Origin: Anaerolineae bacterium
GTDB taxonomy: Bacteria; Chloroflexota; Anaerolineae; B4-G1; SLSP01
Assembly (NCBI GenBank): GCA_034676805.1
Contig: JAXDDO010000006.1
Location: 9,305-73,304 of the forward strand
Reading direction: 5' to 3'
DNA: 64,000 nucleotides
Each line of letters begins with the position of its first letter. Position 1 is the stretch's first letter. Positions 41,049 to 63,173 of the stretch are shown here, one piece after another. The notes beneath the pieces are model-generated. The model was not told where the DNA came from. It saw only the letters and a program-made list of their open reading frames with translations, and did not search any database. Made by a program: the position numbers and the translations under genes.

Positions 41049-41074
41049 AATCACCTCCTGACGATGGCTACCCC

Positions 41075-45794: not shown

Positions 45795-45812
45795 CCCCTG
45801 TCAGCCGTAAGA

Positions 45813-45989: not shown

Positions 45990-46877
45990 CTACCAGGTAC
46001 GCTCCTGCAGCAACTCCTGGATGGCGTCACGTGGTACGGGCAAGGCGTCGATGTGATCTTCGAGCCAGCCGGAGAAATCGGCCTCAATCTCGTCATTCCA
46101 CCGCGCGTCGATCTGACCTGGCGTATACTTACCTTCGTGCAGGCGCTGCTTGCCGAACATATCACGCAGCTGGACCAGCTCCGAAGTCCTGACCACGTTC
46201 TCGACGAGGTGTGGTGGGATGAAAATAACGCCGTTATGCTGGCCCAGCACGACGTCGCCTGGCATCACGGTCGCCTGGCCAATGCGGATGGGACAATTGA
46301 CGCCCACCAGCATGATAGTTGGTGAGGCGTAGGTCGGATGGAAGCCACGAACGAAGCTGGCAAAGCCCGGGATCTCCTGAATGCCGTCGATATCTCGGAC
46401 CGAGGCGTCGTGGACAACACCCTTGCCCGACTTGGCATAGATCGCCGTCGAGAGATTGTCGCCGATGATCGGGCCCTCCTCGTGTTTGCCATACACGTCG
46501 GCCACATAGACGTCTCCCGGCACGAGCATATCGATAGGCCACGAGATCTGGTCGCCGATGCAACCGAGCCGCGCGCCTTTCTCCTCCATCAAGGCCCGCA
46601 TATCGGGCCGCCGCGGCACGTACATCGCCGTGAGCGCCCGACCCACCAGCGTTTGGCCCGGGTGGGTACACACAAAGCCATCCTCATATTGCCAATGATA
46701 GCCGGCGTTCCGCAGCACGCCCCAGGCCTGTGTAAGCGTCACATGGCCGACCCGCTCCAGAAGACTGTCCGGCACCTTGGGCCGCCCGTCGGCAAACCGC
46801 TCTCCCTTCCATTCGTAGGTATACTCGATGATCTCCCCGGGATTCAGGTTCAGTGGTGCAAACTTCTCAGTGTCCAT
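45990..46877 (-). CDS. RraA-like / class II (HMG/CHA-type) aldolase family protein with N- and C-terminal extensions
   Basis: Core LVGRALT......D...PGDVYVADV......IGDNLSTAIYAKSGKGVVHDASVRD is typical of the RraA/DlpA fold. ATG 46877 lies 10 nt after the upstream stop. Confidence 0.7.
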   Translation of the reverse strand: MDTEKFAPLNLNPGEIIEYTYEWKGERFADGRPKVPDSLLERVGHVTLTQAWGVLRNAGYHWQYEDGFVCTHPGQTLVGRALTAMYVPRRPDMRALMEEKGARLGCIGDQISWPIDMLVPGDVYVADVYGKHEEGPIIGDNLSTAIYAKSGKGVVHDASVRDIDGIQEIPGFASFVRGFHPTYASPTIMLVGVNCPIRIGQATVMPGDVVLGQHNGVIFIPPHLVENVVRTSELVQLRDMFGKQRLHEGKYTPGQIDARWNDEIEADFSGWLEDHIDALPVPRDAIQELLQERTW

Positions 46878-46887
46878 GGCCTGCCAG

Positions 46888-48039: not shown

Positions 48040-48047
48040 CTGTCCTT

Positions 48048-48998
48048 TCAGTGCCGCAGCGGGTACTGACCGCCCGCCGCTGCCAGAATCTCGCCCCAAT
48101 CCTCGTCGCTCAGGGTCACGTCCAGCGCCGCGACCCACTCACCGACACGCTTGGGTTTACCTGAGGCGGGGATCGTCACATCGACGTCGGGGTTGCGCAA
48201 AGAGAAGGCCAGAGCCGCCGTCGCCAGGTCGATCCCCTTGGCCGCGCACGCCACCTCCAATCGTCGCGTGGCCTCGATCACATCCTCTTCCGCCGGGACA
48301 TAGTTGTAGCGGGCGTCAGGCCGCGCCCCCGTTGCCAGGATGTAGCCCGCGTAGGGAGCCGAGTTGAGGATCGACACGCCTTTCGCCCGCGCAGACGGGA
48401 TGACCCGCTCCGCAGCCGACTGGTTGAGCAGCGTATAGGTGTGGAAGATCTGAATGACATCGATCCCACCGCTGTCCACCGCGGCCTGCAGGCAATCCAG
48501 GCCCAGCGTGCCCATGCCCACGGCACCGATGACACCCTGGCGCTTCAGATCGAGCAGCGCCTCCAGCGCGCCGCCCTTCGCGAACACCTGTTCCAGGGCT
48601 TGAGTGCGCACGTCGTGGATGTGGACAATGTGCAGGAAGTCGGTGCCCAACCGTTTGAGGCTTCGCTCCACAGACCGGTAGATCTGCTGGGCCCGGTAAC
48701 CCGTGTAGTAGATCCCCAGCTCCGAGTCCACGTAGGACCCCGCTTTGGTTGCCAAAACGATGTCCGGCGGGAGATCGAGCGCCTGCAGAGCCCGGCCGAT
48801 CACCGGTTCTGTGCCATAGAGCGGCGCCGTGTCGATGTGGCGAATGCCCGCGTCCAACACCGCCTGCAGCATCGCGACGGTGTCCTCGAATGAGACCTGG
48901 TTGGGCCATCCCGCCGTGCCGAGGCCCAGCTTGGTGCTGACGATCCCGGTGCGGCCAAGGGTAACCTTGGGCACCCCATTCAACGTTGAATGTGCCAT
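48048..48998 (-). CDS. Aldo/keto reductase (aldose 1-dehydrogenase-like)
   Basis: GAGGAG RBS. LGLGTAG..., IDTAPLYG and the typical AKR barrel length. Confidence 0.85.
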   Translation of the reverse strand: MAHSTLNGVPKVTLGRTGIVSTKLGLGTAGWPNQVSFEDTVAMLQAVLDAGIRHIDTAPLYGTEPVIGRALQALDLPPDIVLATKAGSYVDSELGIYYTGYRAQQIYRSVERSLKRLGTDFLHIVHIHDVRTQALEQVFAKGGALEALLDLKRQGVIGAVGMGTLGLDCLQAAVDSGGIDVIQIFHTYTLLNQSAAERVIPSARAKGVSILNSAPYAGYILATGARPDARYNYVPAEEDVIEATRRLEVACAAKGIDLATAALAFSLRNPDVDVTIPASGKPKRVGEWVAALDVTLSDEDWGEILAAAGGQYPLRH

Positions 48999-49008
48999 AG
49001 CTTCTCCT

Positions 49009-49854
49009 CTAGATGCCGCCCACCCCATACCAGCGCGCGGCGGTGCCTCCCAGAACTGCCTCCTGCATCTCTGAAGGCAGGGGCTTCATATAATCGATAA
49101 CTATGCCAATCGTCTCCGCGTAAGGAGCCGCCTGGAGACACACGGGCCAGTCAGACCCAACCATCAGCCGCTCAGGCCCAAAGGCTTCGAAGATGGTATC
49201 CAGAAAGGGTATGAAGTCTGAAGGTTGCCAGGCGGCGTGGTCGGCGCGGGTTACCATTCCCGAAACCTTACAGGCCACATTCGGATGCGCGGCCAGCCGG
49301 CGGATCTCGCCGGCCCATGAGGCAGCATCGCGGTCGGCCGTGGCCGCATTGGCGATGTCGGGGTTCCCAATGTGGTCCAAGATGAACCGTTGCTGGGGCG
49401 CCGCTTCGACCAAGGCGCGCGCGAGCGGCAGCCTGGAAGGGGTAACGAGCAGATCAAACGTCAACCCCGCCGCGGTCAGCTCTGCGATGCCGCGGACAAA
49501 GTCAGCCCGCGGGATGCCCGGGTCCTCCGGCTCGGTTTGAATGGGACACCGCACGCCCCGGTATTCCGGGTGGATGGTCAGATGTGCCAGGCGCTCCGGC
49601 AGGTCGGGCACGCACAAGTCGGCCCAGCCCACCACACCTGTGATCCAGGGATGCGCGTGGGCCAGCTCCAGCAGCCAGTGCGTCTCCTCCCAGGTCGAGC
49701 GTGCCTGGACCAGAATCGTGCCATCGAACCCGGCTGCTGCCAGCAGCGGGCGGAGATCAGCGGGCAGATAGTCGCGTTTGAGGACGTCGGCTCTGATCCA
49801 GCGGTAGGATGCCGCTGAATAGCGCCAAAAGTGCTGATGGGCATCGATTTTCAT
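49009..49854 (-). CDS. Amidohydrolase-2 family (COG3618-type sugar lactonase-like)
   Basis: MKIDAHQHFW N-terminal metal motif and a C-terminal GSDWPV motif, as in L-fucono-/L-rhamnono-lactonase relatives. The track start at 50013 is an extension. Confidence 0.8.
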   Translation of the reverse strand: MKIDAHQHFWRYSAASYRWIRADVLKRDYLPADLRPLLAAAGFDGTILVQARSTWEETHWLLELAHAHPWITGVVGWADLCVPDLPERLAHLTIHPEYRGVRCPIQTEPEDPGIPRADFVRGIAELTAAGLTFDLLVTPSRLPLARALVEAAPQQRFILDHIGNPDIANAATADRDAASWAGEIRRLAAHPNVACKVSGMVTRADHAAWQPSDFIPFLDTIFEAFGPERLMVGSDWPVCLQAAPYAETIGIVIDYMKPLPSEMQEAVLGGTAARWYGVGGI

Positions 49855-50003
49855 GTCTCGGGGTTCTCCAGGCTCAGAAGTGGAACCGCAACAACCTTCA
49901 TAGACTTGCCCTCCGGGACGATGCAGTATACAAGATGATGAAATCCGGCGCCACGGGGTACGTTGTACACCCACGTGGCCAAATGACAACATCAGGAGGA
50001 TCC

Positions 50004-51008
50004 ATGCCGGCAACTGGAGGAAGGCTCTACGAACGGGTATTGGGCTGCCTATACGGTGGTGAGATCGGGGACGCGATGGGCGCGCCCGCCGAAGGCAAGA
50101 CCTATCAGCAGATCGCCGACATGTTCGGTGAGATCATTGACTTCGCGGGCTACGGCACCGATGACTCGGCCCTCAAACACATCCTCTGCGACGCGATCGA
50201 GCGGGGCGATGGGTATCCAACCGCCGACACGTGGGCGGAGGAATGGCTGGCTCAGGAAGATATGTTCATCAAGCGGCACCTCTTCTGGATTCCGGTGATG
50301 AACGGCTTCTGGAAGGTGCGGGCTGAGGGTGTTCCGCCGAGAGAAGCGGGCCACGGTAACATGGCGAGCAGCAGCTCTGCTATGTGCATCTCGCCGATGG
50401 GCATCATCAACGCCGGAGACCCCAGACAGGCCGCACTGGAGACCTTCGACGTCGCGTCGATCATCCATCACAACTTCTCCCGCGACGCAGCGTGCAGCAT
50501 GGCGGCTGCAGTCGCGGCGGCGCTCCATCCCGATGCGACGCTCGACTCGATCCTCGACGCGGCAGTGGCCTATCTACCGCCCCGGAGTGCGCACACGATG
50601 CGTCACTACATCGAGAAGACGGTGGCATTGGCGCGCGAGACCGGGGCCTACGTGGCCTTCCGCGAGATCTACTATTCGGAGCATATGCTGCCCGAGGTGG
50701 CCATACCGGATGCGCGAGAGACCGTGCCCGTGGCGCTATCGCTCTTCTATCTTGCCGGCGGCGATCCCCGTCAGACGATCATCAGCGGCGCCAACTTCGG
50801 ACGGGATGCCGACACCATCGCCTCCATGGCCGGCGCGATTGCGGGCGCCTATCGCGGCGTCAGGGCGATTCCTGAGGCCTGGGTCGACAAGGTGAAGGCC
50901 GAGAGTCCGCGCGCCCACGAGGACGTAGCACGGTCGCTGGTCAACGTGGTCGCGCGCCGGGTGGAGGCTGCGACGCAACATATAGCCGCCTTAGGTGCCA
51001 TGCTCTAG
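50004..51008 (+). CDS. ADP-ribosylglycohydrolase (DraG/ARH) family protein
   Basis: AGGAGGA RBS. N-terminal GCLYGGEIGDAMGAPAEG and C-terminal GRDADTIASMAGAIAGAY motifs (the di-metal site). Confidence 0.8.
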   Translation: MPATGGRLYERVLGCLYGGEIGDAMGAPAEGKTYQQIADMFGEIIDFAGYGTDDSALKHILCDAIERGDGYPTADTWAEEWLAQEDMFIKRHLFWIPVMNGFWKVRAEGVPPREAGHGNMASSSSAMCISPMGIINAGDPRQAALETFDVASIIHHNFSRDAACSMAAAVAAALHPDATLDSILDAAVAYLPPRSAHTMRHYIEKTVALARETGAYVAFREIYYSEHMLPEVAIPDARETVPVALSLFYLAGGDPRQTIISGANFGRDADTIASMAGAIAGAYRGVRAIPEAWVDKVKAESPRAHEDVARSLVNVVARRVEAATQHIAALGAML

Positions 51009-51128: not shown

Positions 51129-52886
51129 CTATCCTCGTGGCCTTCCCTTCCGGAAAGCCGCCGCTACGCGCGTCAGATCATACTTCTGGGAGCGGTCGTA
51201 GTTGTAGATGCCGTTCTGCTCCTGCTCGATGTCGGTGAGCTGGGTATAGCAGAAGCCGCAGATATGGTCGTAGCTGAGCACGGCATCGACCAGGCCTTCC
51301 AGCCGCGAGTAGAACTCCTCCAGGGTCTTGGGCGCCTCGCCATATCCCCACGAGTCCTCGGCGAAGACCAGGTCTGCGGTGGGAATCCACTTGATACCTC
51401 CGAACTCGTCGACGATGTAGGGCTGTCCGGTGTAGGCGACTTCGAACTCGGGAACGTTGCGCCACACGCCCGCTTCCGGGCTGGGCCGGAGCAGTTCTCT
51501 GAGCCTATCCGGGTCCTGCTCATAGGTATGGACGGTCCATAGGTCAGTCTTGACGTGCGCGTAGCCGCTGGCGTCGTTGACCGGGCGAGTCGGGTCCAGA
51601 TCGTGGCACATGTCGTAGGCATCTGCATGAAGCCGCGCGTGCTGGGGATGGCCGGCACCCCCCCGTGTCTCGTTGAATGGCGTCCACGCAATGATCGATG
51701 GATGGTTTCGGTCGCGGGTCACGATCTCGCGCCACTCCGCCAGGAAGTTCCGCGCGCTGACCTCATCCGTAACGTCAATGCCCCAGCTCGATGACTCACC
51801 CCACGTGAGGTATCCAAGACGGTCGGCCCAATAGTGGAAGCGCGGCTCGAAGACCTTCTGGTGCAGACGCGCGCCGTTGAAGCCGGCCGCCATCGATAGT
51901 TCGATATCGTGCTTGAGCACCGCATCCGAGGGCGCAGTCCAGATGCCATCCGGGTAGAAGCCTTGATCGAGCACGAGCCGCAGGTAGATCGGCTCGTTGT
52001 TGAGGAGCACGCGGTTCCCTTCGACATGCACCTTGCGCAGGCCCGCGTAGCTCAGGACCGTGTCGATCACCACATCGCCATCCACGACCTCGAAGACCAG
52101 ATCGTAAAGGAACGGATCGGCAGGCGACCAGGGTTTCGGACTGGGGATCGAGAGCTGGCACCCGCCGCCGTCGACCGCAACCCGCTCGACCTCCGCGACG
52201 ACGGCCCCGCCGTCCTTGAGCATTGCCCGGAACGTGAGCCCGGGTGTCAGGGCATAGAACCTGGGCGTGATCAGAAACCGCTGACCGTCCAGATCGGGGA
52301 CGATATGCACGTCACGCAGTCCGCACTCGGCAACCGCCTCCACCCACACGGTCTGCCAGATGCCGGTGGTGCGGGTGTACATACACCCGAAGGAATGGTA
52401 CCGGGGCGACTGCTTGCCGCCCGGCTGCACACCCGAGCGAACTTCATCGCGCACGGCGACGACCAAGTCGTGCGTTGCACCGGGCGTGACGTGAGCCGTA
52501 ACGTCAAAGGCGAGGGCCACGGTGCCGCCCCAGTGGCGGCCCACCGAGACACCATCGATGAAGACCTCGGCCTCGTAGTCCACGGCTCCGAAGTGCAAGA
52601 TCACACGCTTGCTCGCCCAGCCTGCGGGCAGGCTGAGCTTGCGGTGATACCACATGGCTTCGATGAAATCGGTGTAGGCCACCCCGGACAGCTCGCTCTC
52701 CGGACAGAAGGGGACCGTGATCTCGCCTCCCCCGGGCGCGTCGCCGAAGCCCTGGCTTTCCGGAAAGCCCTGCTCGCGGCCTGATTTGCCGAAGTCGAAA
52801 ACGTACGTCCAAGTGCCATTGAGATTGAGCCAATCGTCGCGCCGAAACTGCGGGCGCGGGTATTCGGAGCGCGGCAGGTCTGGCAT
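51129..52886 (-). CDS. Glycoside hydrolase family 2 (beta-galactosidase/beta-glucuronidase-like)
   Basis: GGAGGA RBS before ATG 52886. N-terminal EYPRPQFRR..WLNLNG.W, acid/base WTPFNE, nucleophile region VDEFGG. No signal peptide. Confidence 0.8.
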   Translation of the reverse strand: MPDLPRSEYPRPQFRRDDWLNLNGTWTYVFDFGKSGREQGFPESQGFGDAPGGGEITVPFCPESELSGVAYTDFIEAMWYHRKLSLPAGWASKRVILHFGAVDYEAEVFIDGVSVGRHWGGTVALAFDVTAHVTPGATHDLVVAVRDEVRSGVQPGGKQSPRYHSFGCMYTRTTGIWQTVWVEAVAECGLRDVHIVPDLDGQRFLITPRFYALTPGLTFRAMLKDGGAVVAEVERVAVDGGGCQLSIPSPKPWSPADPFLYDLVFEVVDGDVVIDTVLSYAGLRKVHVEGNRVLLNNEPIYLRLVLDQGFYPDGIWTAPSDAVLKHDIELSMAAGFNGARLHQKVFEPRFHYWADRLGYLTWGESSSWGIDVTDEVSARNFLAEWREIVTRDRNHPSIIAWTPFNETRGGAGHPQHARLHADAYDMCHDLDPTRPVNDASGYAHVKTDLWTVHTYEQDPDRLRELLRPSPEAGVWRNVPEFEVAYTGQPYIVDEFGGIKWIPTADLVFAEDSWGYGEAPKTLEEFYSRLEGLVDAVLSYDHICGFCYTQLTDIEQEQNGIYNYDRSQKYDLTRVAAAFRKGRPRG

Positions 52887-53307
52887 AGCGTGTCCTCCTG
52901 GATTCCCCTTACCGACAGCGTGCGTCTGCGTCAAGGATACTCGACCAATGGTCCAGGTCAAATGAGCTGCCACGGGCCGACGGGCAGGCGTGCACCGGTG
53001 CACAGACCGGCCTGGCGAAGGTCAGGAACGAGCCTATACTGTCACCTATAAGAGGCCGGTTGTACCGCGCTCTGTGCTCGCCGCTCCCAGGAGATGACGT
53101 TGACTGCCAATGCGTTGTCGGCATCCTGCCCAGTGTGCTCCAGCCTCGGAGAGTTCCGGGAAATCGAGAACGCCCAAGATCCGGGGGAACTGGACGAATC
53201 ACAGGCCTTTCCACTGCGGCAGCGCCTACGTAGCGGCAAGGCAGGGCGCCGGCTCGGAATTGGCGCTCATCGAATCCCGATATCGGGACACGACCAAGGA
53301 GGCGTTT

Positions 53308-54657
53308 ATGCCCACCGACCCACTGTCGTTGCATCCGGACAATCCACACTACATGGTCTTCCGCGGAAAGCCAGCGGTTCTCATCACATCGGGCGAGCAC
53401 TACGGCGCCGTCATGAACCTGGACTTCGATTACCACCGCTATCTCGACGCCCTGGCGGAAGGCGGCTTCAACCTCACCCGGCTCTTTAGCGGCACCTACA
53501 GGGAGCGTCCCGGGAGCCACCGGATCCAGAACAACACGATGGCCCCGCAAGACGCGCGTTTTGTCTGCCCGTGGCGGTGCGTGGAGCGCGGACCGGGCAA
53601 CGCGCCGCTGAAATGGGATCTGACCCAGTGGGATGAAGCCTACTGGCAGCGTCTACGTGACTTCGTGGCCCAGGCCGGCTCCCGCGGCATCGTGGTCGAG
53701 TACGTCCTCTTCTGCTACATGTACAGCGACGAGCTATGGCGCGCCAGCCCCCTGCATCCCGACAACAACGTCAACGGGCTGAGGGTCGAGAACCCTAACA
53801 ACATCTTCAGGCTCGACAACCCACCGGTGCTTGCCGCTCAGGAAGCCTTTGTCCGAAAGGCAGCCCAAGAGCTGAACCGCTTTGACAACGTCTACTATGA
53901 GATCGCCAACGAGCTCTACGTGTGCCAGGACGGCACGCTCTACCTCGACTGGCAACACCATCTCGTGGACGTCTTGCGCGAAGAGGAACGCGCCTTGCCG
54001 GCGCGGCACCTGGTCGCCATCAACTACTGGAACAACGTTGGGCGCGCCGTGCCGCTTCACCCGGACGTGGACATTCTCAACTTTCACTACGCCTTCCCCG
54101 AAGCTGTGGCGTGGAACTACGGCCTGGACCGCGTGATCGCGGACGACGAGACGGGGTTCAAAGGATGGACGAGCACGCCCTACCGCACAGAGGCGTGGGC
54201 CTTTATGCTGAGCGGCGGCGCCGTCTTTAGTCACCTGGACTACAGCTTCACCGTAGCGCATCCCGATGGCACAGCAGCCCTCGTCGACGAGACGCCGGGT
54301 CACGGTGGGCCCGCGTGGCGCGCGCAGTTGAGCGTCCTGAAGCGCTTCTTGGACGCCTTTGATCTGCCGCCGATGGCGCCCCATCCCGAGGCCGCGATGC
54401 CCGGCACAGCGCTCAACACGCGGGTTGCGGTGCTCGCCGAACCAGGCCGGCAGTATGCCGTCTACCTCTGGGGCGGAGGCCCTAACACCGACCTCCGGGT
54501 GCAGTTGCCTGCCGGAAGTTACGAGTTCACCTGGACCAACCCATCAGACGGCAGAACCATCCGGACCACAGAGGTCGATGGGCACAGTGGCGGCACCTAT
54601 ACTGTCAGGACGCCCACCTTCCTGGAGGACCTGGCGCTCTCCATCATCCGCCGGTGA
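53308..54657 (+). CDS. Putative glycoside hydrolase, GH5-like TIM barrel
   Basis: AAGGAGG RBS before ATG 53308. The YYEIANE motif (the acid/base Asn-Glu of clan GH-A). The family assignment is tentative. The track start at 53110 is an intergenic extension. Confidence 0.5.
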   Translation: MPTDPLSLHPDNPHYMVFRGKPAVLITSGEHYGAVMNLDFDYHRYLDALAEGGFNLTRLFSGTYRERPGSHRIQNNTMAPQDARFVCPWRCVERGPGNAPLKWDLTQWDEAYWQRLRDFVAQAGSRGIVVEYVLFCYMYSDELWRASPLHPDNNVNGLRVENPNNIFRLDNPPVLAAQEAFVRKAAQELNRFDNVYYEIANELYVCQDGTLYLDWQHHLVDVLREEERALPARHLVAINYWNNVGRAVPLHPDVDILNFHYAFPEAVAWNYGLDRVIADDETGFKGWTSTPYRTEAWAFMLSGGAVFSHLDYSFTVAHPDGTAALVDETPGHGGPAWRAQLSVLKRFLDAFDLPPMAPHPEAAMPGTALNTRVAVLAEPGRQYAVYLWGGGPNTDLRVQLPAGSYEFTWTNPSDGRTIRTTEVDGHSGGTYTVRTPTFLEDLALSIIRR

Positions 54658-54720: not shown

Positions 54721-55839
54721 ATGTTTGATCCGACCAGCTCGAGACTCGTGACACCGTGGACCGACCCGGACTCCGGCGTGACCAGCTACATCCTCACACA
54801 GAAGGTCGCGCCTGTGCAGGAGGCCTTCTACTTCGTCAACCCCAACGTCACCCACGATGGGCGCTACTGGTGGTTCTACTGCGCCTTTCCCCCGTCTGGC
54901 ACGGGGGCTCAGGGCCGAACGCTGGGCGTCGCGGATTTTGCCGCCGGCGAAGTGCGTCACTTTCCCGACACGCAGTTCAATCACGCCTCTCCGTGGGTCA
55001 ATCTCGATACTGGCGCCGTCACGTGGGGCATGGGCGACGCGCTTTGGCGGCGTGGACCCGAGCCCGACGCCGGTGCCGAGCTGGTGAACCGTCTTCCCGA
55101 GGACCTGGTGGGCCACCGCACTGTGTCGCGCATAGCGACCCACCTGACGCTCTCCGCAGACGGGCGGGCGTTCTTTATCGACGCCAACGTGGGGCTGCAA
55201 TGGGTGTTCGGGTCGCTGCCGGTCGATGGAAGCGATTTCGTGGAATGGCACCGGTTCCAGCGCAACTACAACCACGCGCAGTTCAGCCCGACCGATCCCG
55301 ATCTCGCGCTCTTCGCACAGGAGAACCACTCTGATCCCATCACCGGGCTCCGCTTCCGCATCGAGGATCGCCTGTGGTTGATCCGGCGGGGCCAGGCGCC
55401 GCATCCCATCATGCCGGAGCCTACGCGGCTGACGCACGAATGGTGGGACCCCGACGGCCGGCACGTATGGTGCATCAAGAGCGACACCGGGGTGTGGCGT
55501 GTGGATATTGAGACGCAGGAAGTCGAGGAGATCGCGTGGCCAGGCGGGCGCTGGCACTCACACAGCGATGCCACGGGCCGCTACCTGATCGGAGATCGGA
55601 ACCCCACCTTCTACCGGGGATGTCCCTCGACGGTCAACTTCCTGAATCGCGAGACAGGGAAAAGCGTGCGCCTGGTGGACAACCCCGAAATGGCCAACTA
55701 TACCGGCGCGAACTACCACATCGACCCGCATCCCCGCTTCTGCTGTGGCGACCGCTTCGTCGTCTTCACCACCACCGTGCGCGGTGTGGTGGATGTTGCC
55801 CTGGCGCTCACTGCCGACCTGATCGAAAGAACTTCGTAG
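54721..55839 (+). CDS. Oligogalacturonate-lyase (PL22)-like beta-propeller protein
   Basis: From memory, several segments resemble Ogl-family proteins: the N-terminal segment (DPDSGVTSYILT...FYF..P.VT.DGRY), THEWWDPDG, and the C-terminal HIDPHPRF...VVFTT. Confidence 0.55.
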   Translation: MFDPTSSRLVTPWTDPDSGVTSYILTQKVAPVQEAFYFVNPNVTHDGRYWWFYCAFPPSGTGAQGRTLGVADFAAGEVRHFPDTQFNHASPWVNLDTGAVTWGMGDALWRRGPEPDAGAELVNRLPEDLVGHRTVSRIATHLTLSADGRAFFIDANVGLQWVFGSLPVDGSDFVEWHRFQRNYNHAQFSPTDPDLALFAQENHSDPITGLRFRIEDRLWLIRRGQAPHPIMPEPTRLTHEWWDPDGRHVWCIKSDTGVWRVDIETQEVEEIAWPGGRWHSHSDATGRYLIGDRNPTFYRGCPSTVNFLNRETGKSVRLVDNPEMANYTGANYHIDPHPRFCCGDRFVVFTTTVRGVVDVALALTADLIERTS

Positions 55840-55847: not shown

Positions 55848-56750
55848 ATGCCCAAGGACTTTGTCAGTTTTCTGGACTACACACCCGCCGAGATCACCGC
55901 TCTGCTGGACCTCGCCGCGGAGCTGCGCGTTGCGTGGCAGGCCCGTACAATGCCACAGCCACTGGCGGGGAAATCCTACGCCCTGATCTGGGACGCCGAA
56001 GGGTTTCGTAACCGTGTCTCGTTCGAACTGGGGATCGCAGCGCTCGGTGGAACCGGCGTCCAGATTCCGGGACGGCTCGATGCGCGGGAGTCCATCGAGG
56101 ACGTCGCCAAGTACCTGGGCAACTGGTTCGACGGCATCGTAGCGCGCACACGTACCCACAGCCACATGGAGCGCCTGGCCGCCGCGTCGCCCGTTCCCGT
56201 CATCAACGCACGGACCGACTTCAACCACCCGTGCGAGATCCTGGGCGATCTGGCCTATATCCGCGACCGCCGCGGCAGACTGAATGGGATCAAGGTCGTC
56301 TTCGTGGGCGAGGCCACCAACCTCTGCCATCCGTGGTTCGAGGCAGCGGCCCGGCTCCCGCTGGAGGTCGTGCAGGTCTGCCCAATGGGCTATGAGGTCA
56401 GTCAGTGGTTTCTCTCACGAGCGAGGCGCAACGCAGCCGGCAAGCTGCGCGTCAGCCACGACCTGGAGGCGGAGCTGCGCACTGCCGACGTGATCTACAC
56501 CGACTGCTGGCCCGCACGACCGGACGATGAGACACGGGCCCGCGTCGAGCGCAGATTCCTGCCCTACCAGATCACTGCCGCGCACCTTCAATCAGCGCCG
56601 TCCGATGTGCTCTTCCTGCCGTGCCCGCCGGTGACACGCGGTGAGGAAGTCTCGGAAGACGCGATGGCTCTGCTGGGTCACCAAGTCTTTGAGGCGAAGG
56701 CCTACCTCCTGCACGCACAAAACGCCATCTTGGTGACGCTGGCATCCTGA
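55848..56750 (+). CDS. Aspartate/ornithine carbamoyltransferase-fold protein with non-canonical substrate motifs
   Basis: Collinear with OTCase over the full length (300 aa): ...ESIEDVAKYLG..FDGIVAR, HPCE, RGEEV, C-terminal helix. STRTR is replaced by GFRNR, DxxxSMG is absent, and HCLP is replaced by LPCPP. The RBS TAGGAG overlaps the stop of the PL22-like gene. Confidence 0.75.
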   Translation: MPKDFVSFLDYTPAEITALLDLAAELRVAWQARTMPQPLAGKSYALIWDAEGFRNRVSFELGIAALGGTGVQIPGRLDARESIEDVAKYLGNWFDGIVARTRTHSHMERLAAASPVPVINARTDFNHPCEILGDLAYIRDRRGRLNGIKVVFVGEATNLCHPWFEAAARLPLEVVQVCPMGYEVSQWFLSRARRNAAGKLRVSHDLEAELRTADVIYTDCWPARPDDETRARVERRFLPYQITAAHLQSAPSDVLFLPCPPVTRGEEVSEDAMALLGHQVFEAKAYLLHAQNAILVTLAS

Positions 56751-56846: not shown

Positions 56847-59213
56847 TCAGAAGGCCTCGTGCTCGGTCCGGGCGATGATCTCGTCCTGGAGCGCCCGGCT
56901 CAGGTCACAGAAGTAGTCGCTGTAGCCCGCCACGCGCACAATCAGCGTGCGATACCGTTCGGGGTCTGCCTGCGCCGCGCGGAGTGTGGCGGCATCGACG
57001 ACGTTGAACTGGATGTGATGGCCGTCCAGCGTGAAGTACGTCCGCACCAACTGTACCAACCCATCAAGCCCCGCATCGTCGGCCAACAGCCGCGGCGTGA
57101 ACTTCTGATTGAGCAACGTGCCTCCCGTGCGCACGTGATCCATCTTGGCCACGGACTTAATGACCGCCGTGGGCCCGGAGCGATCGGCTCCCTGGACCGG
57201 AGAGATGCCCTCCGAGACCGGCGTGCCAGCTCGGCGACCGTCCGGCGTGGCGCCGGTTACCGACCCGAAGTAGACATGGCACGTGGTCGGCAACAGATCG
57301 ATGTGATAGGCGCCGCCTTTGGTATTGCGCCGCCCGTCAATCGCAGCATAGTAGGTCTCGAAGACACGCACCATCACGGCATCGGCAACCTGGTCGTCGT
57401 TGCCATACTTGGGGGTGCGGTTGAGCAGGAGCTGGCGCACGCGCTCGTGGCCCACGAAGTCAGCGTCGAGGGCGGCGAGAAGGTCGGGCAGCGTCAGGCT
57501 CTGCCGGTCGAAGACGTGAACCTGGAGCGCCGTCAAGGCATCGGTGATCGTGCCCAACCCCACGCCCTGGATGTAGGAAGTGTTGTACCGCGCCCCACCA
57601 TCGTGGTAGTCGCGCCCGGTGGCAATGCAGTCATCGATGAGCAGCGACAGAAACGGCACTGGCATATAGCGGGCATAGAGCCGCTCAATGACGTTGTTGC
57701 CGCGGATCTTGATGTCAACGAAGTGCTGCACCTGCCGCCGGAACGCATCGAAAAGCTGCTCGAACGTTGTCCACGTGGTGGGGTCGCCGGTCTGGGGGCC
57801 GATCTGCTTGCCCGTGCGCGGGTCGATGCCGTTGTGGAGCGCGATCTCGAGCACTTTGGGCAGGTTGAAGTAGCCCGTCAGGTTGTAGTTCTCCTTCCCA
57901 AACGCTCCCGTCTCGACGCACCCGCTGGTGCCGCCCGCCCGCGCATCGACCAGCGACTTACCTTGGCGCAGCAATTCCTCCACCACCAGATCGGCGTTGA
58001 AGACCGAGGGCTGCCCAAACCCGGTGCGGATGATCTCCGCTGCGCGCCGGATGAACCGGTCGGGGTTCTTCTTGCTCACCTGGATCGACGAACTGGGCTG
58101 TAGCAGCCGCATCGCCTCGATCACGTCCAACAGTAGAAAGGTGACCTCGTTGACGCCGTCAGAGCCGTCAGCCCGCACGCCGCCGGTGTTGATCTGGGCA
58201 AAGTCGGTGTACGTACCGCTCTCCGCCGCCGTGACGCCCACCTTGGGCGGGGCAGGCTGGTTGTTGAACTTGATCCAGAAGCACTGCAGCAGCTCCTCGG
58301 CTTGCGCTCGGGTCAGAGTACCGTCGGCCAGCCCGCACCGGTAGAAGGGCTCCAGGTGTTGATCCAACCTGCCTGGGTTGAACGCGTCCCACGGATTGAG
58401 CTCCAGGGTGACACCCAGGTGGACAAACCAATAGGCTTGCAGGGCCTCCCAGAAGGTGCGGGGCGCGTGGGCCGGAACCCTCTCACAAACTTCGGCGATC
58501 TGCAGCAGCTCCGCCTTGCGAGCCGGGTTGGGCTCTCCTTCTGCCAACGTGCGCGCCCTCTCGGCGTGGCGCAGCGCGAAGCGGACGATCGCGTGAGCCG
58601 CGATGTGCATCGCCTTCAGTTGCTCCTGCCGGTCATAGGCGGTGGGATCGTTCAGATAGTCAAGGCGCGCCAGTTGCGCCTCGATGTCGGCCGCGAAGTC
58701 GAGCATGCCCCGGCGGTAGATCTTGTCGTCCAGCGTCGTATGCCCGGGGCCGCGCTGCTCCATGAACTCGGTGAAGATACCGGCCTCGTACGCATCTTTC
58801 CATGCGGCGGTCATCTCGCGGAAGATCGCCTCGCGCATCGTCTTGCCGCGCCAGAAGGGCAGGATGGTCTCGGCGTAGGCCTGACGGGCCTCCTGGCTCA
58901 CCTTGAACGGGATCTTCTCGCGCCCATCGAGGAGCTCCAGATCGTCCAGCGTATGACAGCACAGCTCGGGATACGTAGGCGCGGCCTTCGGCGCAGGCCC
59001 TTTCTCGCCTACGATGAGTTCGCCCGGGTTGATGCAGATGGCCTTGTGCTCCATCAGATAACGGAACGCCAGCGCCCGGCGCACCGGTGCGGAGACCGGC
59101 CCCAGATCTCGCCCGTAGAACGCCGTCAGCAGCTCCGCCCGCTCGATGGAGAGGGTAGGCACTGCATCCAGGCTTTGCTGCCGCAACCGTGCAACACGCT
59201 CGGTTATCGCCAT
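56847..59213 (-). CDS. Glycyl radical enzyme, PFL2/dehydratase clade; active site resembles trans-4-hydroxy-L-proline dehydratase (HypD)
   Basis: C-terminal glycyl radical motif IVRVAGYSDYF (G763) and thiyl loop SGCVE (C432/E434). 788 aa. The start is coupled to the upstream gene (TGAGGACCTATG). Confidence 0.9.
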   Translation of the reverse strand: MAITERVARLRQQSLDAVPTLSIERAELLTAFYGRDLGPVSAPVRRALAFRYLMEHKAICINPGELIVGEKGPAPKAAPTYPELCCHTLDDLELLDGREKIPFKVSQEARQAYAETILPFWRGKTMREAIFREMTAAWKDAYEAGIFTEFMEQRGPGHTTLDDKIYRRGMLDFAADIEAQLARLDYLNDPTAYDRQEQLKAMHIAAHAIVRFALRHAERARTLAEGEPNPARKAELLQIAEVCERVPAHAPRTFWEALQAYWFVHLGVTLELNPWDAFNPGRLDQHLEPFYRCGLADGTLTRAQAEELLQCFWIKFNNQPAPPKVGVTAAESGTYTDFAQINTGGVRADGSDGVNEVTFLLLDVIEAMRLLQPSSSIQVSKKNPDRFIRRAAEIIRTGFGQPSVFNADLVVEELLRQGKSLVDARAGGTSGCVETGAFGKENYNLTGYFNLPKVLEIALHNGIDPRTGKQIGPQTGDPTTWTTFEQLFDAFRRQVQHFVDIKIRGNNVIERLYARYMPVPFLSLLIDDCIATGRDYHDGGARYNTSYIQGVGLGTITDALTALQVHVFDRQSLTLPDLLAALDADFVGHERVRQLLLNRTPKYGNDDQVADAVMVRVFETYYAAIDGRRNTKGGAYHIDLLPTTCHVYFGSVTGATPDGRRAGTPVSEGISPVQGADRSGPTAVIKSVAKMDHVRTGGTLLNQKFTPRLLADDAGLDGLVQLVRTYFTLDGHHIQFNVVDAATLRAAQADPERYRTLIVRVAGYSDYFCDLSRALQDEIIARTEHEAF

Positions 59214-59219
59214 AGGTCC

Positions 59220-60920
59220 TCAGTATTCGTCGATCTCGCCGTCCAGAAGAGGCCAGCGATCGAAGGCGGTGTCCAGGTGCTCATCGTCCACAGCGACGAT
59301 AACCCACCGGTTCCGCGGAGCATTCACGTTGAACGTAATCCTCGGCCCATCCGGCCATTGAAAGACGCGGTTGATCGTGACGGGGTCGCTGTTTGCGGCC
59401 GTGACGGCGGCAAGCACGGCTTTGGGGTCGTCATCGTGAAACAGCGCCACCAGACCTTGCTCGACCTGACTATGCACAACCACGACCAGGCCATCGACCG
59501 GCGCATAGACCTCCCATAGATCATTGCTGACGATGAGCTCCCACGAGGCAGGCACGTGCACCGGACCTGCGGCACAGGCCAGATCGCGGTAGACCCCGGT
59601 GTTGTTCCATGTCGTGAAGGTGTCGTCGGGCCCCGCGAGGTACAGCACGTCCGAGAGATCCCGGGCCTCATCATCGAGCATCAGCGTAATCGGTCGCGCC
59701 ACAATCATCGACCGCTTCCCGCGATGAACCCCGCCGGCGCTCAGCAGGTATCCGGGCCCGCCGGCATAGATCTCGGGCGAGGCCCACGGACCGTGGCCGA
59801 TACGAACGAAGTAGGTTGTCGGCTTCTCCAGAATCCAGCGCACCACCTCGTCGGGCGGACGGTAGGGCAATAGGGCTGCCAAAAGCGCGTGGTGACGGCC
59901 CTCAGTCAACGGAGCACCGTCCTCGATGTCGCCGGTGGGGTGGAAACTCATCCAGGTCCGGATCAGCGCGGTGTGATAGTCAGCATCGAGTGCCGTGAGG
60001 CCCGCACGCGCAAGCTGCCGGCGGAAGGGGGCGAAGCGCCGGTAAGCCAGGCTGCCCAAGGCATACTCCCAGTTGGCGCGGTCAAGAACACGTTGGGCAG
60101 CACCGCGCACCGCATCAGACCCATAGGCTTCCAGGTTCAGGAGCGCCGTGAGCGTGTAGCCCATGTAGGGAATGGAGTTGAACTCATAGAGCCCGGCGCT
60201 GTTGAGTTCGCGCAGCAGATCCAGCATCCACCGCTCCATCCCGTTGCGCTCGTTATCGTGGCGCGCATCGGTGCTCCCGTGCAGCATCAGCCAGCGGTTC
60301 TTGAGATACCGGGAGCCCTCGGTCATCAGGAGATGGTTTTCCGTATCACGGATCAGGCCCAGCGTGCGCGGCACGCTGACCCGTGGATTGCCGCCCTCTT
60401 CGACGAGCAGCACATCGAGCAGGTGGGTCCGGGTCTCCGGATAGAGCACGCCCGGTTCATCGCCATACAGGTAGAGCATCGTCGTGAGGGCAGCCAACGT
60501 GAAGTCATAATCGCCCTGGGTGTGTAGCTCCCACGTGGAGCCACTGCGCCCCCAGGGCACCTGGGCTTGGAGATAGGCGTTGGCGGCTTCCAGATCCTGT
60601 CCTGAGGCAAATCGGGCCAGCAGCGCCCGCGGGGCAGTCACCTTGCCCTCCTCATGCCAGTCGGGCAGGGGTTCAGCCGCCCAGTCGGCAATCAGGGCTT
60701 GTGCCAGCTCTGACTGCTCATTCCACCGGATGGCGCGCGCGTGGGGCACCAGGATGGCGCCAGCAGCCCGAGGTACGTTGCTCCAGCGCGCGGCGCCGGC
60801 AAAGTGCCCGCCAATACGCAAGAGCCCCCAAAGAGCGGCGCCACCGACAAGAAGGAGCACGAGGCGCCTGACCCGACGTCGCTTCACGACACTTGCCGGC
60901 GTTTCGGCTGTGTGAGTCAC
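59220..60920 (-). CDS. Hypothetical membrane-anchored protein (N-terminal Arg-rich segment plus one TM helix, about 520-aa extracytoplasmic body)
   Basis: 566-aa ORF with gene-like codon usage. N-terminus KRRRVRRLVLLLVGGAALWGLL. I recognise no family. The helix-rich N-terminal half and beta-rich C-terminal half are compatible with a lyase/hydrolase toroid plus sandwich architecture (speculative). The start codon (GTG 60920) is uncertain. Confidence 0.6.
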   Translation of the reverse strand: MTHTAETPASVVKRRRVRRLVLLLVGGAALWGLLRIGGHFAGAARWSNVPRAAGAILVPHARAIRWNEQSELAQALIADWAAEPLPDWHEEGKVTAPRALLARFASGQDLEAANAYLQAQVPWGRSGSTWELHTQGDYDFTLAALTTMLYLYGDEPGVLYPETRTHLLDVLLVEEGGNPRVSVPRTLGLIRDTENHLLMTEGSRYLKNRWLMLHGSTDARHDNERNGMERWMLDLLRELNSAGLYEFNSIPYMGYTLTALLNLEAYGSDAVRGAAQRVLDRANWEYALGSLAYRRFAPFRRQLARAGLTALDADYHTALIRTWMSFHPTGDIEDGAPLTEGRHHALLAALLPYRPPDEVVRWILEKPTTYFVRIGHGPWASPEIYAGGPGYLLSAGGVHRGKRSMIVARPITLMLDDEARDLSDVLYLAGPDDTFTTWNNTGVYRDLACAAGPVHVPASWELIVSNDLWEVYAPVDGLVVVVHSQVEQGLVALFHDDDPKAVLAAVTAANSDPVTINRVFQWPDGPRITFNVNAPRNRWVIVAVDDEHLDTAFDRWPLLDGEIDEY

Positions 60921-60978: not shown

Positions 60979-61908
60979 TCATCCCAGCAGTCCCTGTATC
61001 TCTGCTAGCTCCCCGGCTGAGAAGAGCCACTGGCCGGCAGCGGCATTCATCGCCGCTTGCTGTGGCGACTTGGCACCGGGGATTGCCACCGGGTCCGCCG
61101 GATGCGAGATCACATAGCGCAGCGCCGCGGTAACCATCTCGTCACCGGGCTCGAACCTACGCTTGAGGCGCTCTACCTGGTCAACCTCCGCCTCGAGTTG
61201 GGCACGGCGCGCACCTCCAACGTTCCACGAAGCGCGCACCGAGTCGGTGAAGACCGACTCACGGGCGTATTTGCCGGCGAGCAGCCCCTGGCGCAGTGGA
61301 CCACGCACCATTACGGCAATGCCGTGTTCCTGGCAGTAGGACAGGAACTCGCCTTCCGGCTTGCGGTTGAGCATCGAGTAGTTAACCTGCACCACTGCAC
61401 AGGTCCCGTTGACGTTGAACCGCTTGAGCACGTCGAGGCTATCGGTTGAGATGCCATAGGCCCGGATGCGCCCCCGCTGCTTGAGCATCTCAAAGGCTTC
61501 GAGGTAGACCGAAGGGTCCTCGATATTGCCCTCATGACAGAGCTCCACATCGAGCCAATCGGTGTGCAGACGGTGCAGCGAGGCGTGGGCGCACAGGCGT
61601 ATCATATCGACCGTGGTCTTGGGTACACCCTGCCCGGTGCGCTCGCCCCAGTGCCCGATCTTGCTGACAAGGATTACCCGGTGGCGGATGCCCGCCAGCG
61701 CAGTGCCGAGCCGCTCCTCCGAAAGCCCGTTGGGGTCGCCATAGGACTCAGCGACGTCAAAGAGGTTGACGCCGCAGTCAAAGGCCGTGCGAATCGTCGC
61801 CCAGGCCGTAGCATCGTCCACCTCGCCCCATTGATTCCCGATGTTCCAGGTGCCCAGGCCAATCGCCGAGGCCTGCCAGCCGGTCTTGCCGAAGTCACGA
61901 TAGATCAT
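60979..61908 (-). CDS. Aldo/keto reductase
   Basis: GGAGG RBS before ATG 61908. N-terminus YRDFGKTGW.ASAIGLGTWNIG, then FDVAESYG. Typical AKR. Confidence 0.85.
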   Translation of the reverse strand: MIYRDFGKTGWQASAIGLGTWNIGNQWGEVDDATAWATIRTAFDCGVNLFDVAESYGDPNGLSEERLGTALAGIRHRVILVSKIGHWGERTGQGVPKTTVDMIRLCAHASLHRLHTDWLDVELCHEGNIEDPSVYLEAFEMLKQRGRIRAYGISTDSLDVLKRFNVNGTCAVVQVNYSMLNRKPEGEFLSYCQEHGIAVMVRGPLRQGLLAGKYARESVFTDSVRASWNVGGARRAQLEAEVDQVERLKRRFEPGDEMVTAALRYVISHPADPVAIPGAKSPQQAAMNAAAGQWLFSAGELAEIQGLLG

Positions 61909-62005
61909 AGGTTTGGCCTCCACAGGGATGTCTAGAAGGACGCAAGGGAGCACATCGCGGGAAGGTCACGCCTGCTTGCCCCTCCCCGCACGTCTACCCG
62001 CACTC

Positions 62006-63016
62006 TTATCCATTTCCGATGCGCAACTCGCTCGAGCGGCGCACGATAAGGTCGGTCGGCAGGACGATCGCCTGGGGTTCAGGCGGTGCCTCGCCCGCCA
62101 GCCGCCTGAGCAGCAGTCCCGTAGCCTCTTGTGCAAGCTCGTAGACGCGTTGTGCGGCAACGGTCAGGAACGGATCCGTCATGAAGGTAGGGGGCAAATC
62201 GTCAAACCCCACAAGCGCTACATCCTCCGGCACGCGCTTGCCGGCCTCGCGCAGCGCGCCGAAGGCGCCAATGGCGATGAAGTTGTTGGCGGCGAAGAGT
62301 GCCGTAGGCGGCGGCATAAGCGCCATGACCTGCGTGGTCATCGCATAACCACCCTCGCGGGTGAAGGCGTGGTAGATGATGAGACGTTCGTTCACCGGAA
62401 CCCCTGCCTCGGCAAGCGCTCGCCGGTATCCGGCAACACGATCGACCGAGGTTGAGACATCTCGCGGACCGCTGAGCATAGCAATCCGGCGATGCCCCAG
62501 TGCCAGAAGGTGGCGCGTCAGCTCGTAAGCCCCCCCTTCAGAATCGGAGCAGACTGTGTCGACAGCGGCGTTCACAGAGCGATCGAGGATGACCAGAGGC
62601 ACGCGCTGTTTCAAAATCAGGTCGACCGAGCGGGAAGCGCCGTGCGCGGGAACAAGCAGGAAACCATCGACCTGCTTTTGGAGCAACACCTGGACGTAGC
62701 TGTACTCCTTGGATTCCGATTCATCGGTATTGCAGAGGATGACGCTGAACCCGGCTCCATTGGCGATATCCTCGACGCCACGTGCAACGGTTGTCCAGAA
62801 AGGATTGGTGATATCGGTCAGGACGAGGGCCAGCGTGTGAGTCTGCTTGGATCGCAAACTGCGCGCCACACGGTTGGGCACGTATCCCAGCGCCTCGATC
62901 GCCGCTCGAACACGCTGTCGAGTGCTCTCACTCACGTAGCCCGTGTCATTGATGACGCGTGAAGCCGTAATAGGCGCAACGCCTGCTTTTCTGGCGACGT
63001 CCTTAATGGTCGGCAT
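62006..63016 (-). CDS. LacI family transcriptional regulator
   Basis: N-terminal HTH MPTIKDVARKAGVAPITASRVIND plus a periplasmic-binding-protein-like sugar-sensing core. Confidence 0.9.
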   Translation of the reverse strand: MPTIKDVARKAGVAPITASRVINDTGYVSESTRQRVRAAIEALGYVPNRVARSLRSKQTHTLALVLTDITNPFWTTVARGVEDIANGAGFSVILCNTDESESKEYSYVQVLLQKQVDGFLLVPAHGASRSVDLILKQRVPLVILDRSVNAAVDTVCSDSEGGAYELTRHLLALGHRRIAMLSGPRDVSTSVDRVAGYRRALAEAGVPVNERLIIYHAFTREGGYAMTTQVMALMPPPTALFAANNFIAIGAFGALREAGKRVPEDVALVGFDDLPPTFMTDPFLTVAAQRVYELAQEATGLLLRRLAGEAPPEPQAIVLPTDLIVRRSSELRIGNG

Positions 63017-63155
63017 GGGGCGATCTCCGTTCGGGCGATGACAACGCTACCATTGTACTTGAATCGAGACAAGGATCAAAGAAAGCGTAAGTGTATTGGC
63101 GTTCCAACGATCGGTTAGCCCCTTGATTGTGTCGTTGCGGGTCGTTACCATGAAA

Positions 63156-63173
63156 ATAGAACTTTAGTTCTAT
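63156..63173. promoter_or_regulatory. Candidate LexA (SOS/Cheo-type) box
   Basis: Perfect palindrome ATAGAACTTTAGTTCTAT containing GAAC-N4-GTTC, 18 nt upstream of the imuB-like start, in an AT-rich promoter patch. Confidence 0.55.

Follow-up and report, generated by a model that had tools for sequence, protein, structure and literature searches.

In Clostridioides difficile, hydroxyproline (Hyp; trans-4-hydroxy-L-proline) is dehydrated by HypD, a glycyl radical enzyme (GRE) for which the roles of the active-site residues have been assigned (PMC7077986). HypD is among the most abundant GREs in anoxic habitats. Hyp-rich glycoproteins have already been proposed in the literature as a source of Hyp, GH127 enzymes cleave Araf-beta-Hyp (PMC6085000), and the enzymes that release Hyp from collagen and plant glycoproteins were named an open challenge by the discoverers of HypD (PMC6219649). 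Here we describe a hypD gene in a 64-kb stretch of DNA from an uncultured Anaerolineae bacterium (hereafter the window, meaning the whole stretch analysed). Judging from sequence comparisons, we regard it as likely that this gene encodes a functional HypD, the activase of which is unlinked, and that it came to be placed behind an older unit of three genes encoding a LacI-family regulator, an aldo/keto reductase (AKR) and a membrane-anchored lyase-like protein, with which it is predicted to be co-transcribed in the window.

The HypD orthologue and its active site

56847..59213, minus strand: hypD, trans-4-hydroxy-L-proline dehydratase (glycyl radical enzyme), 788 aa (NF043068, PDB 6VXC and Pfam matches)
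56925..56927, minus strand: G763 codon (GGC), glycyl radical site in the RVAGYS loop (read from the sequence)
57912..57920, minus strand: C432-V433-E434 codons of the thiyl (CXE) loop, C432 codon at 57918-57920 (sequence and alignment)

By its sequence, the 788-aa protein is a HypD orthologue, an ordinary and intact copy of a known enzyme, because it passes the cut-off of the HypD equivalog NF043068 (1312.3 bits over residues 4-786; cut-off 1100 bits), aligns with C. difficile HypD (6VXC/6VXE) without a single gap over 782 residues at 57% identity, and has 14 of the 14 published HypD active-site residues. In this alignment residues 4-785 fall on residues 26-807 of the 6VXC chain, the numbering of which is shifted by 20 residues from that of native C. 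difficile HypD; the length class, the glycyl loop and the CXE loop are likewise the same. The next-best specific NCBIfam families reach at most 545 bits, the TIGR01774 match is at the generic subfamily level only, and Pfam finds the PFL-like and Gly_radical domains (124.8 bits for the latter). Among characterised GREs, 6VXC scores 1077 bits, followed by glycerol dehydratase (555), CutC (510) and three GREs for other Hyp isomers included for comparison, HpzG (476), HpyG (451) and HplG (431), such that the HypD score is twice that of any other. Two members of the same clade (P0006 and P0085) have already been named HypD by NCBI.

A preliminary description of this DNA had located RVAGYS (G763) and GCVE (C432/E434) in this frame and proposed a HypD-like active site, with H158, D276, S332, F338, C432, E434, Y448, T643 and G763 matching HypD at a constant offset of -2. 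The motifs lie where it had placed them, all nine residues are present in the translation, and the 6VXC alignment puts them on H160, D278, S334, F340, C434, E436, Y450, T645 and G765; with HypD also the closest of the characterised GREs, the assignment is fully upheld. Five further HypD residues (F152, R156, W277, K326 and D339) are matched by F150, R154, W275, K324 and D337. Thus the acid/base residues H160, D278 and D339 are kept as H158, D276 and D337, and so is the set binding the Hyp carboxylate and ring (S332, Y448, T643, F338, F150, W275, R154 and K324). The 14 residues are kept in 84 relatives, with a single deviating sequence at each of R154, V433 and G763, and are common to relatives with and without a linked activase; in the glycyl loop R760, V761, A762, Y764 and S765 are invariant and G763 is found in 83 of the 84. 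The claim that three glycerol dehydratase residues are not conserved is correct for S282 and D447 (A277 and L445 here), but H164 aligns with the conserved H158. These two replacements do not fit B12-independent glycerol dehydratase.

If the enzyme works in the way established for HypD, an activase of the radical-SAM type would place the radical on G763, from where it would move to C432; C432 would then abstract the C5 hydrogen of Hyp, and D276, together with H158, D337 and E434, would promote loss of the 4-hydroxyl group to yield P5C.

The unit upstream of hypD

62006..63016, minus strand: LacI-family transcriptional regulator (Pfam LacI and Peripla_BP)
60979..61953, minus strand: aldo/keto reductase (Pfam PF00248, 173 bits)
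59220..60920, minus strand: uncharacterised protein of 546-566 aa with an N-terminal membrane anchor and a predicted alpha/alpha domain plus beta-sandwich, probably a fold like that of polysaccharide lyases and epimerases (AF2 and Foldseek)
59214..59222, minus strand: junction of the lyase-like gene and hypD, comprising the TGA stop codon, a spacer of 6 nt and a Shine-Dalgarno sequence (GAGGA) that overlaps the stop codon (direct reading)
63052..63079, minus strand: weak match to a sigma-70-like promoter, upstream of the LacI gene (1 site versus 1.2 expected in shuffles, not significant)
51129..53003, minus strand: GH2 glycosidase, a recurring hypD neighbour in related Anaerolineae, outside the operon (Pfam GH2 domains)

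The unit accompanies hypD in five Anaerolineae species, the window's included, which form one clade. The AKR gene is an optional part of it, being present in the units of L007, L092, L098 and L099 and missing in L009 and L047; the lyase-like gene precedes hypD in L007, L009, L047 and L098. The arrangement reported earlier, LacI-AKR-unknown-GRE, is thus real and kept in four further species, but its first three genes also occur together without hypD. The glycosidase island said to surround it is not conserved: the 40 kb in question are variable and the island is absent in L007. L009 and L047 have close GH2 homologues at 1.6-3.4 kb from hypD, and L020 has a more distantly related one upstream. 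An AKR acting as a surrogate P5C reductase was considered and rejected, given that L009 and L047 lack the gene and that units without hypD contain it.

The 6-nt spacer and the Shine-Dalgarno sequence overlapping the stop imply that in the window the lyase-like gene and hypD are co-transcribed and closely spaced for translation. Co-transcription would not be clade-wide, because in L007 and L098 other genes, among them a divergent MFS transporter, intervene between the two; in each of L007, L009, L047 and L098, hypD has an orthologous MFS transporter gene beside it. The LacI protein, by which hypD may be controlled, scores under every NCBIfam equivalog cut-off. No operator conserved across the window, L007, L009, L047 and L092 was found, the search in these five orthologous units producing solely a species-specific palindrome at 63156-63173.

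The product of the lyase-like gene had been described as an unknown membrane protein; it is indeed membrane-anchored, but single-pass with a probably lyase-like fold and not polytopic. Its AF2 model (pLDDT 91.7) matches 6HZN, PL17 4OJZ and PL33 8R73 in Foldseek at probability 0.94-0.98, with E values of 2.3e-3 to 1e-2 and TM scores of 0.24-0.38. The protein has 612 homologues, and its family occupies glycan-utilisation loci in other phyla; a metagenome scan recovered the window's own population only. We could not place it in any defined PL or GH family, since there was no Pfam match even at E<=1 (39 members), no NCBIfam match and no PDB sequence match, family-profile search included. Going by the fold model, it is probably an extracytoplasmic glycan-active enzyme.

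Possible sources of hydroxyproline

The placement of hypD could be functional, in that LacI-(AKR)-lyase-like-(GH146/GH127)-(MFS)-hypD would constitute a locus for using Hyp-rich glycoproteins (extensins and arabinogalactan proteins, for example), a reading that we put forward only tentatively and judge rather unlikely. On this reading the glycan would be trimmed by an enzyme facing outwards, Hyp-glycosides or glycopeptides would enter the cell through a transporter, and a beta-L-arabinofuranosidase would free Hyp, which HypD would then dehydrate. Several observations are consistent with this. In L098, which belongs to the same clade as the window, a GH146-like beta-L-arabinofuranosidase gene directly follows the lyase-like gene; in L020 (Anaerolineales) a HypBA1-like GH127 and a GH2 lie about 7 kb upstream of activase and hypD; and in L084 (Terriglobia) activase and hypD are immediately followed by GH36 and two GH127/146-type genes. 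The known action of GH127 enzymes on Araf-beta-Hyp, the glycan-utilisation loci of the lyase-like family and the MFS orthologues beside hypD point the same way. However, the 64-kb window has no GH127, GH146 or GH121 gene; just 4 of the 80 species have a PF07944-type gene within 10 kb of hypD, a frequency not clearly beyond what chance would give in saccharolytic genomes; GH127/146 covers other specificities as well, two of the proteins leaning towards aceric acid hydrolase; the three upstream genes occur without hypD, and the island is lacking in L007; and a lyase-like fold would suggest substrates containing uronates, not arabinosides. The link to Hyp-O-glycosylated substrates suggested earlier thus finds anecdotal comparative support in L098, L020 and L084 and none in the window, and support for Hyp from glycosylated plant proteins is anecdotal altogether. 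Doubtful, too, is the scenario in which hypD was recruited in one Anaerolineae clade into a LacI-controlled locus of this kind, where a new membrane-anchored lyase-like family would attack the glycan outside, the MFS transporter and GH146/GH127 (in L098 and L020) would deliver Hyp, and HypD would feed it into P5C metabolism.

Genes for peptide uptake and a prolidase are found near hypD in L010 and L085; as these are the only two such cases, we discarded this context as a general Anaerolineae pattern.

A shift of the HypD-like enzyme to another substrate linked to a sugar pathway, for example another hydroxylated cyclic amine, could be invoked in view of its unusual operon partners and of the related HplG, HpyG and HpzG, which act on other Hyp isomers. 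We consider this highly improbable: the residues that mutagenesis has implicated in binding or converting Hyp are all kept, the HypD score is double that of any other characterised GRE, and the active site does not differ between activase-linked and activase-less relatives.

Activase linkage, selection and known systems

As the preliminary description had stated, there is no activase gene in the 64 kb: an HMM of 64 activases encoded next to HypD gave no match at E<=10, the CX3CX2C motif is confined to two small ORFs (85 and 105 aa) that are probably spurious, and Pfam scans of the larger ORFs gave no match to Radical_SAM, P5C reductase or aldehyde dehydrogenase, which also bears out the reported lack of an adjoining proC or P5C dehydrogenase gene. 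Nor is there an activase in the 5 kb past the right end of the window, or within 10 kb on either side of hypD in L007, L009, L047, L098 and 10 other Chloroflexota loci. When linkage was counted in 80 loci (L012-L091; 76 informative), the activase lay directly upstream of hypD on the same strand in 64 of 80 species (64 of the 76 informative). These two-gene modules encode orthologous HypD proteins (65-79% identity) amid variable flanking genes, the activase being the sole widely shared neighbour in neighbour clustering, whereas the window, 11 other Chloroflexota species and one unclassified bin have none within 10 kb. All 12 informative loci without an adjacent activase belong to Chloroflexota, the unclassified bin nesting there. 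An adjacent activase is a usual but not a defining feature of HypD, and its absence, earlier called atypical, is unusual with respect to other phyla but recurrent in Chloroflexota, where the linkage has been broken repeatedly, the unlinked state having arisen several times. Lack of proC, called atypical as well, proved to be normal, with no proC or P5C-dehydrogenase cluster emerging beside hypD among the 80 loci.

That hypD is a non-functional orphan relic having lost its activase, as the lack of an activase in the 64 kb and the further 5 kb might suggest, is highly improbable and is refuted by purifying selection (dN/dS = 0.09-0.13 among activase-less clade members, with dS >1), the frame, catalytic residues and glycyl loop all being intact and the activase-less state persisting in at least five species. 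The glycyl loop, the identity of which is known to affect recognition by the activase (PMC13450708), is the same as in activase-linked relatives, and in this lineage the activase gene may have been split from hypD, its product presumably acting in trans from another place in the genome.

Taken together, the window teaches nothing new about HypD chemistry, and what is unusual about its hypD gene is confined to the unlinked activase and the probable operon partner. The enzyme is widespread in Anaerolineae, on which the literature we searched is silent; in Chloroflexota the enzyme stays under selection despite its repeated separation from the activase gene; and in one clade hypD is predicted to be transcribed with an uncharacterised, probably glycan-active protein. 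Loci combining hypD with GH127, GH146 or GH36 genes and the lyase-like partner are concrete candidates for the Hyp-releasing steps. If the glycoprotein reading were true, they would for the first time connect, at the level of genes, the removal of glycans from Hyp-glycoproteins of plants or algae with the anaerobic breakdown of Hyp.

In C. difficile, hypD clusters with its activase gene and proC, whereas the window gene, in a high-GC Chloroflexota host, has neither activase (NF043069/TIGR02494) nor proC adjacent and is predicted to be transcribed behind the LacI/AKR/lyase-like unit. A precedent for a GRE using an activase shared with another GRE is E. coli TdcE, activated by PflA; this is a PFL-family case, and HypD is not known to share an activase in this way. 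In its putative alpha/alpha-toroid and beta-sandwich the model of the lyase-like protein resembles PL17 Alg17c, PL33, PL8 and dermatan-sulfate epimerase, but at a TM score of about 0.35 and with no sequence match in Pfam, NCBIfam or PDB. The Bifidobacterium longum hypBA1/hypBA2/hypAA cluster for Hyp-linked beta-L-arabinooligosaccharides, in contrast to the present locus, uses the sugars only and has no HypD, and its GH121 is unrelated in sequence to the window's membrane-anchored protein. The likeness lies in combining an extracellular enzyme anchored in the membrane with a transporter and with a beta-L-arabinofuranosidase inside the cell, homologues of which (GH146/GH127) stand beside hypD in L098 and L020.

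Identity and active site of the dehydratase

The glycyl radical enzyme (GRE) considered here is encoded by a single ORF:

56847..59213, minus strand: hypD, 788 aa

Its product scores 1312 bits against the NCBIfam equivalog model for trans-4-hydroxy-L-proline dehydratase (HypD; NF043068, cut-off 1100), compared with 686 bits for the generic PFL2/glycerol-dehydratase subfamily model TIGR01774 and at most 545 bits, far under their own cut-offs, for the remaining next-best families. Among solved structures, the score of C. difficile HypD (PDB 6VXC, 1077 bits) is roughly double that of glycerol dehydratase (555 bits) or CutC (510), and the GREs for other hydroxyproline isomers reach 476 (HpzG), 451 (HpyG) and 431 bits (HplG). 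Judged by its sequence, what had been described as a protein with a HypD-like active site is in fact a bona fide HypD orthologue and so adds one more member to a known enzyme family. It has thousands of close relatives in a large protein database, the nearest of which (77-84% identity) come from Anaerolineae MAGs, and two of the nearest Anaerolineae relatives already bear the name trans-4-hydroxy-L-proline dehydratase at NCBI. Six metagenome assemblies, JGI samples 3300009773 and 3300009770 among them, have contigs that encode the identical protein.

The alignment with 6VXC (57% identity) runs without gaps over 782 residues (query 4-785, chain 26-807) and, once chain numbering is converted to native numbering (a shift of 20 residues), bears out the constant -2 offset to C. 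difficile HypD proposed earlier. Every residue assigned by Backman et al. as catalytic on the basis of structure and mutagenesis (H160, D278, D339 and E436) or as substrate-binding (S334, F340, Y450 and T645, with F152, W277, R156 and K326 also in contact; PMC7077986) has its match in the window protein. Direct reading of the ORF likewise places the glycyl radical motif RVAGYS (G763, codon 56925-56927), the thiyl loop GCVE (C432, codon 57918-57920, and E434) and H158, D276, S332, F338, Y448 and T643 exactly where the preliminary description had them. Across an alignment of 84 relatives, conservation extends to the 14 active-site positions and to the Gly loop, the exceptions being a single deviating sequence each at R154, V433 and G763. 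The statement that H164, S282 and D447 of glycerol dehydratase are not conserved stands for the latter two, which are replaced by A277 and L445, but not for H164, which aligns with the conserved H158.

The activase and the usual neighbors of hypD

As had been claimed for the whole 64 kb, the window yielded no credible match to an activase, the radical-SAM enzyme that installs the glycyl radical. The CX3CX2C motif is confined to two short, probably spurious ORFs; a search with E. coli PflA, used only as seed, retrieved no homologue from the window and one from 64 of 80 related genome loci; and an HMM of those 64 activases gave no match in the window at a threshold as loose as E<=10. In L001, the activase-free stretch runs about 5 kb past the right end of the window. 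One of the retrieved activases, from the Anaerolineales locus L020, was checked against Pfam and NCBIfam: it contains Radical_SAM and Fer4 domains, exceeds the cut-off of TIGR02494 and best matches the HypD activase model NF043069.

In the 64 species-level loci that have it, the activase nearly always lies immediately upstream of hypD on the same strand; four of the 80 are without upstream sequence, and 12 have no activase despite enough flank. Of these 12, 11 carry a Chloroflexota label; the remaining one (L027) is an unclassified bin with a HypD nested among those of Anaerolineae. An unlinked activase is thus real, and unusual outside Chloroflexota, being seen in about 30% of the species of this phylum and in none of the other phyla sampled. 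The activase-less cases are scattered in a neighbor-joining tree, and the linkage was therefore lost several times; the window and loci L007, L009 and L047 form one clade, which L098 joins by pairwise identity. That hypD is a relic is ruled out by dN/dS values of 0.09-0.13 with dS >1 within this activase-less clade: the gene is under purifying selection. Since, in addition, the Gly loop, which is known to help determine recognition by the activase (PMC13450708), is the same as in activase-linked relatives, the activase is likely encoded elsewhere in the genome, outside the window.

The missing proC and P5C dehydrogenase genes were earlier regarded as atypical; the lack of proC is normal for HypD, and the activase was the only widely shared neighbor when the genes around hypD were clustered in the 80 loci. 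The order GntR regulator, oligopeptide ABC transporter, M24 peptidase, hypD in L010, another Anaerolineae locus, points to hydroxyproline (Hyp)-containing peptides. This locus (4042-13834; HypD 77% identical) is itself without activase and has a DAO-type oxidase after hypD.

The LacI unit and its lyase-like protein

Three genes precede hypD on its strand:

62006..63016, minus strand: LacI-family regulator
60979..61953, minus strand: aldo/keto reductase (AKR)
59220..60920, minus strand: lyase-like protein

The TGA stop of the last of these is separated by six bases from the hypD ATG and overlapped by a GAGGA; with this arrangement, the two genes are very likely co-transcribed in the window's organism. 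The unit ending in the GRE, as first described, is real, and the operon in which hypD joins a LacI regulator and an uncharacterised lyase-like protein is conserved within a small clade, its order being shared, with variations, by four more species. L009 and L047 (82% and 79% HypD identity) have LacI, the lyase-like gene and hypD; L007 (80%) has all three upstream genes, then a divergent MFS gene and hypD. In L098 (191-11042, Anaerolineae MAG GCA_025454475.1; 78% identity across the 469 HypD residues available) the order is LacI (split), AKR, lyase-like protein, GH146-like beta-L-arabinofuranosidase, MazE/PIN pair, MBL-fold genes, MFS transporter and hypD, cut by the contig end. The three upstream genes also occur without hypD, in L092 and L099; this older unit therefore seems to have acquired hypD later.

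In four members of the clade, hypD has as its neighbor an orthologous MFS_1/MFS_3 transporter encoded on the opposite strand:

L007, 8470-9777
L009, 12462-13688
L047, 12398-13786
L098, 6992-8305

It has no counterpart beside the window hypD, the nearest window homologue (44499-45800) scoring just 158-165 bits. No LacI operator was conserved among the orthologous units of the window, L007, L009, L047 and L092, and the sole promoter match was not above chance. The LacI start is preceded, at a distance of about 140 bp (63156-63173), by a perfect AT-rich 18-bp palindrome, ATAGAACTAAAGTTCTAT, which stands out in a genome of 64.5% GC; it is not conserved in the units of L007, L009, L047 and L092.

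The lyase-like protein had no sequence match in Pfam, NCBIfam or PDB, and searching with 39 family members or with their profile did not change this. The family to which it belongs (about 550 aa) counts 612 detectable homologues, from Anaerolineae, Planctomycetes and Kiritimatiellota. An AlphaFold (AF2) model from the 39-sequence alignment is confident (pLDDT 91.7) and starts with a helix (residues 8-42), to which an alpha-helical domain and then a beta-sandwich are joined; the N-terminal helix follows a basic stretch, which points to a membrane-anchored protein with its bulk outside the cell. The similarities returned by Foldseek were weak but consistent (E 2e-3 to 1e-2, probability 0.94-0.98) and concerned dermatan-sulfate epimerase, PL17 alginate lyase, PL33 hyaluronan lyase and PL8. 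Family members in other phyla neighbor sulfatases, lie in a PUL-like cluster with a TonB-dependent receptor and sulfatase, or adjoin a GH106 rhamnosidase with rhamnose catabolic genes. We read the protein as a putative glycan-active ectoenzyme of an undescribed family, with a predicted polysaccharide-lyase-like two-domain fold.

The glycosidase island and hydroxyproline-rich glycoproteins

A block with pstSCAB, a phoR-like kinase, a response regulator and galT (window 8239-16456; L007 12364-22367) adjoins hypD directly in L007, whereas 40 kb separate the two in the window, where the block occupies 8.2-16.5 kb. The intervening island (16.5-56.8 kb) of glycosidase and sugar-acid genes, with GH38, GH31, two GH2, a CE15-like esterase, two MR/MLE genes, an RraA-like aldolase, AKRs, amidohydrolases and MFS transporters, was therefore inserted or deleted between relatives. 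The glycosidase island in which hypD had been placed is thus present, but it is variable and not a conserved partner. The contextual claims of the preliminary description were accordingly partly right, holding for the unlinked activase and the operon and failing for proC and the island.

Several other window genes deserve mention. Consecutive RraA-like aldolase, MR/MLE dehydratase, aldo/keto reductase and Amidohydro_2 genes (45990-50013, minus strand) resemble, by their Pfam families, a non-phosphorylative deoxy-sugar (fucose/rhamnose-type) acid pathway. Next to the CE15-like esterase and an MR/MLE enzyme lies a gene of the lactate racemase family (LarA-like; 16743-18026, plus). An ornithine-type carbamoyltransferase (55848-56750, plus), convergent with hypD, is under every NCBIfam cut-off (best 244 bits vs 306) and restricted to the population of the window itself. 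Genes with carboxyltransferase CT_C_D and CT_A_B domains (246-2040, plus) resemble the 5-oxoprolinase subunits PxpB/PxpC, and a separate hydantoinase/oxoprolinase-family gene lies at 25582-27693 (plus). Four sizeable ORFs with coding-like GC3 (5831-7423, plus; 39702-41054, minus; 53110-54657, plus; 54721-55839, plus) matched no Pfam or NCBIfam family, the third giving only sub-threshold apiosidase-like and DUF6298 matches.

A link to Hyp-O-glycosylated substrates had also been suggested. In L098, from the window's clade, a PF07944 glycosidase closest to the GH146 beta-L-arabinofuranosidases BT0349 and Bll3HypBA1 directly follows the lyase-like gene; in L020, a HypBA1-like GH127 and a GH2 lie upstream of activase and hypD; and in L084 (9030-19878, Terriglobia), a GH36 alpha-galactosidase gene and two genes of GH127/146 type come immediately after activase and hypD. 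Such evidence is suggestive yet anecdotal, because the window itself has no GH127/GH146-type gene, just 4 of 80 species have PF07944-type genes no more than 10 kb from hypD, two of their products lean to the aceric acid hydrolase subfamily, and Anaerolineae genomes are glycosidase-rich anyway. Functional coupling of hypD to the use of Hyp-rich glycoproteins strikes us as rather improbable. The literature searched contained no co-mention of GH127/HypBA1 and a hydroxyproline dehydratase.

The main value of these loci lies in testable candidates for Hyp release from glycoproteins and in an undescribed partner family. That Hyp-rich plant glycoproteins may supply sugars as well as Hyp has already been proposed by Huang et al., who regard finding the Hyp-releasing enzymes as an important challenge. 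Extensin repeats carry Ser-O-alpha-Gal and Hyp-O-beta-L-Araf, and Araf-beta-Hyp is cleaved by GH127 enzymes (PMC6085000); the glycosidases of L084 match both glycosidic linkages of the extensin Ser-Hyp4 repeats.
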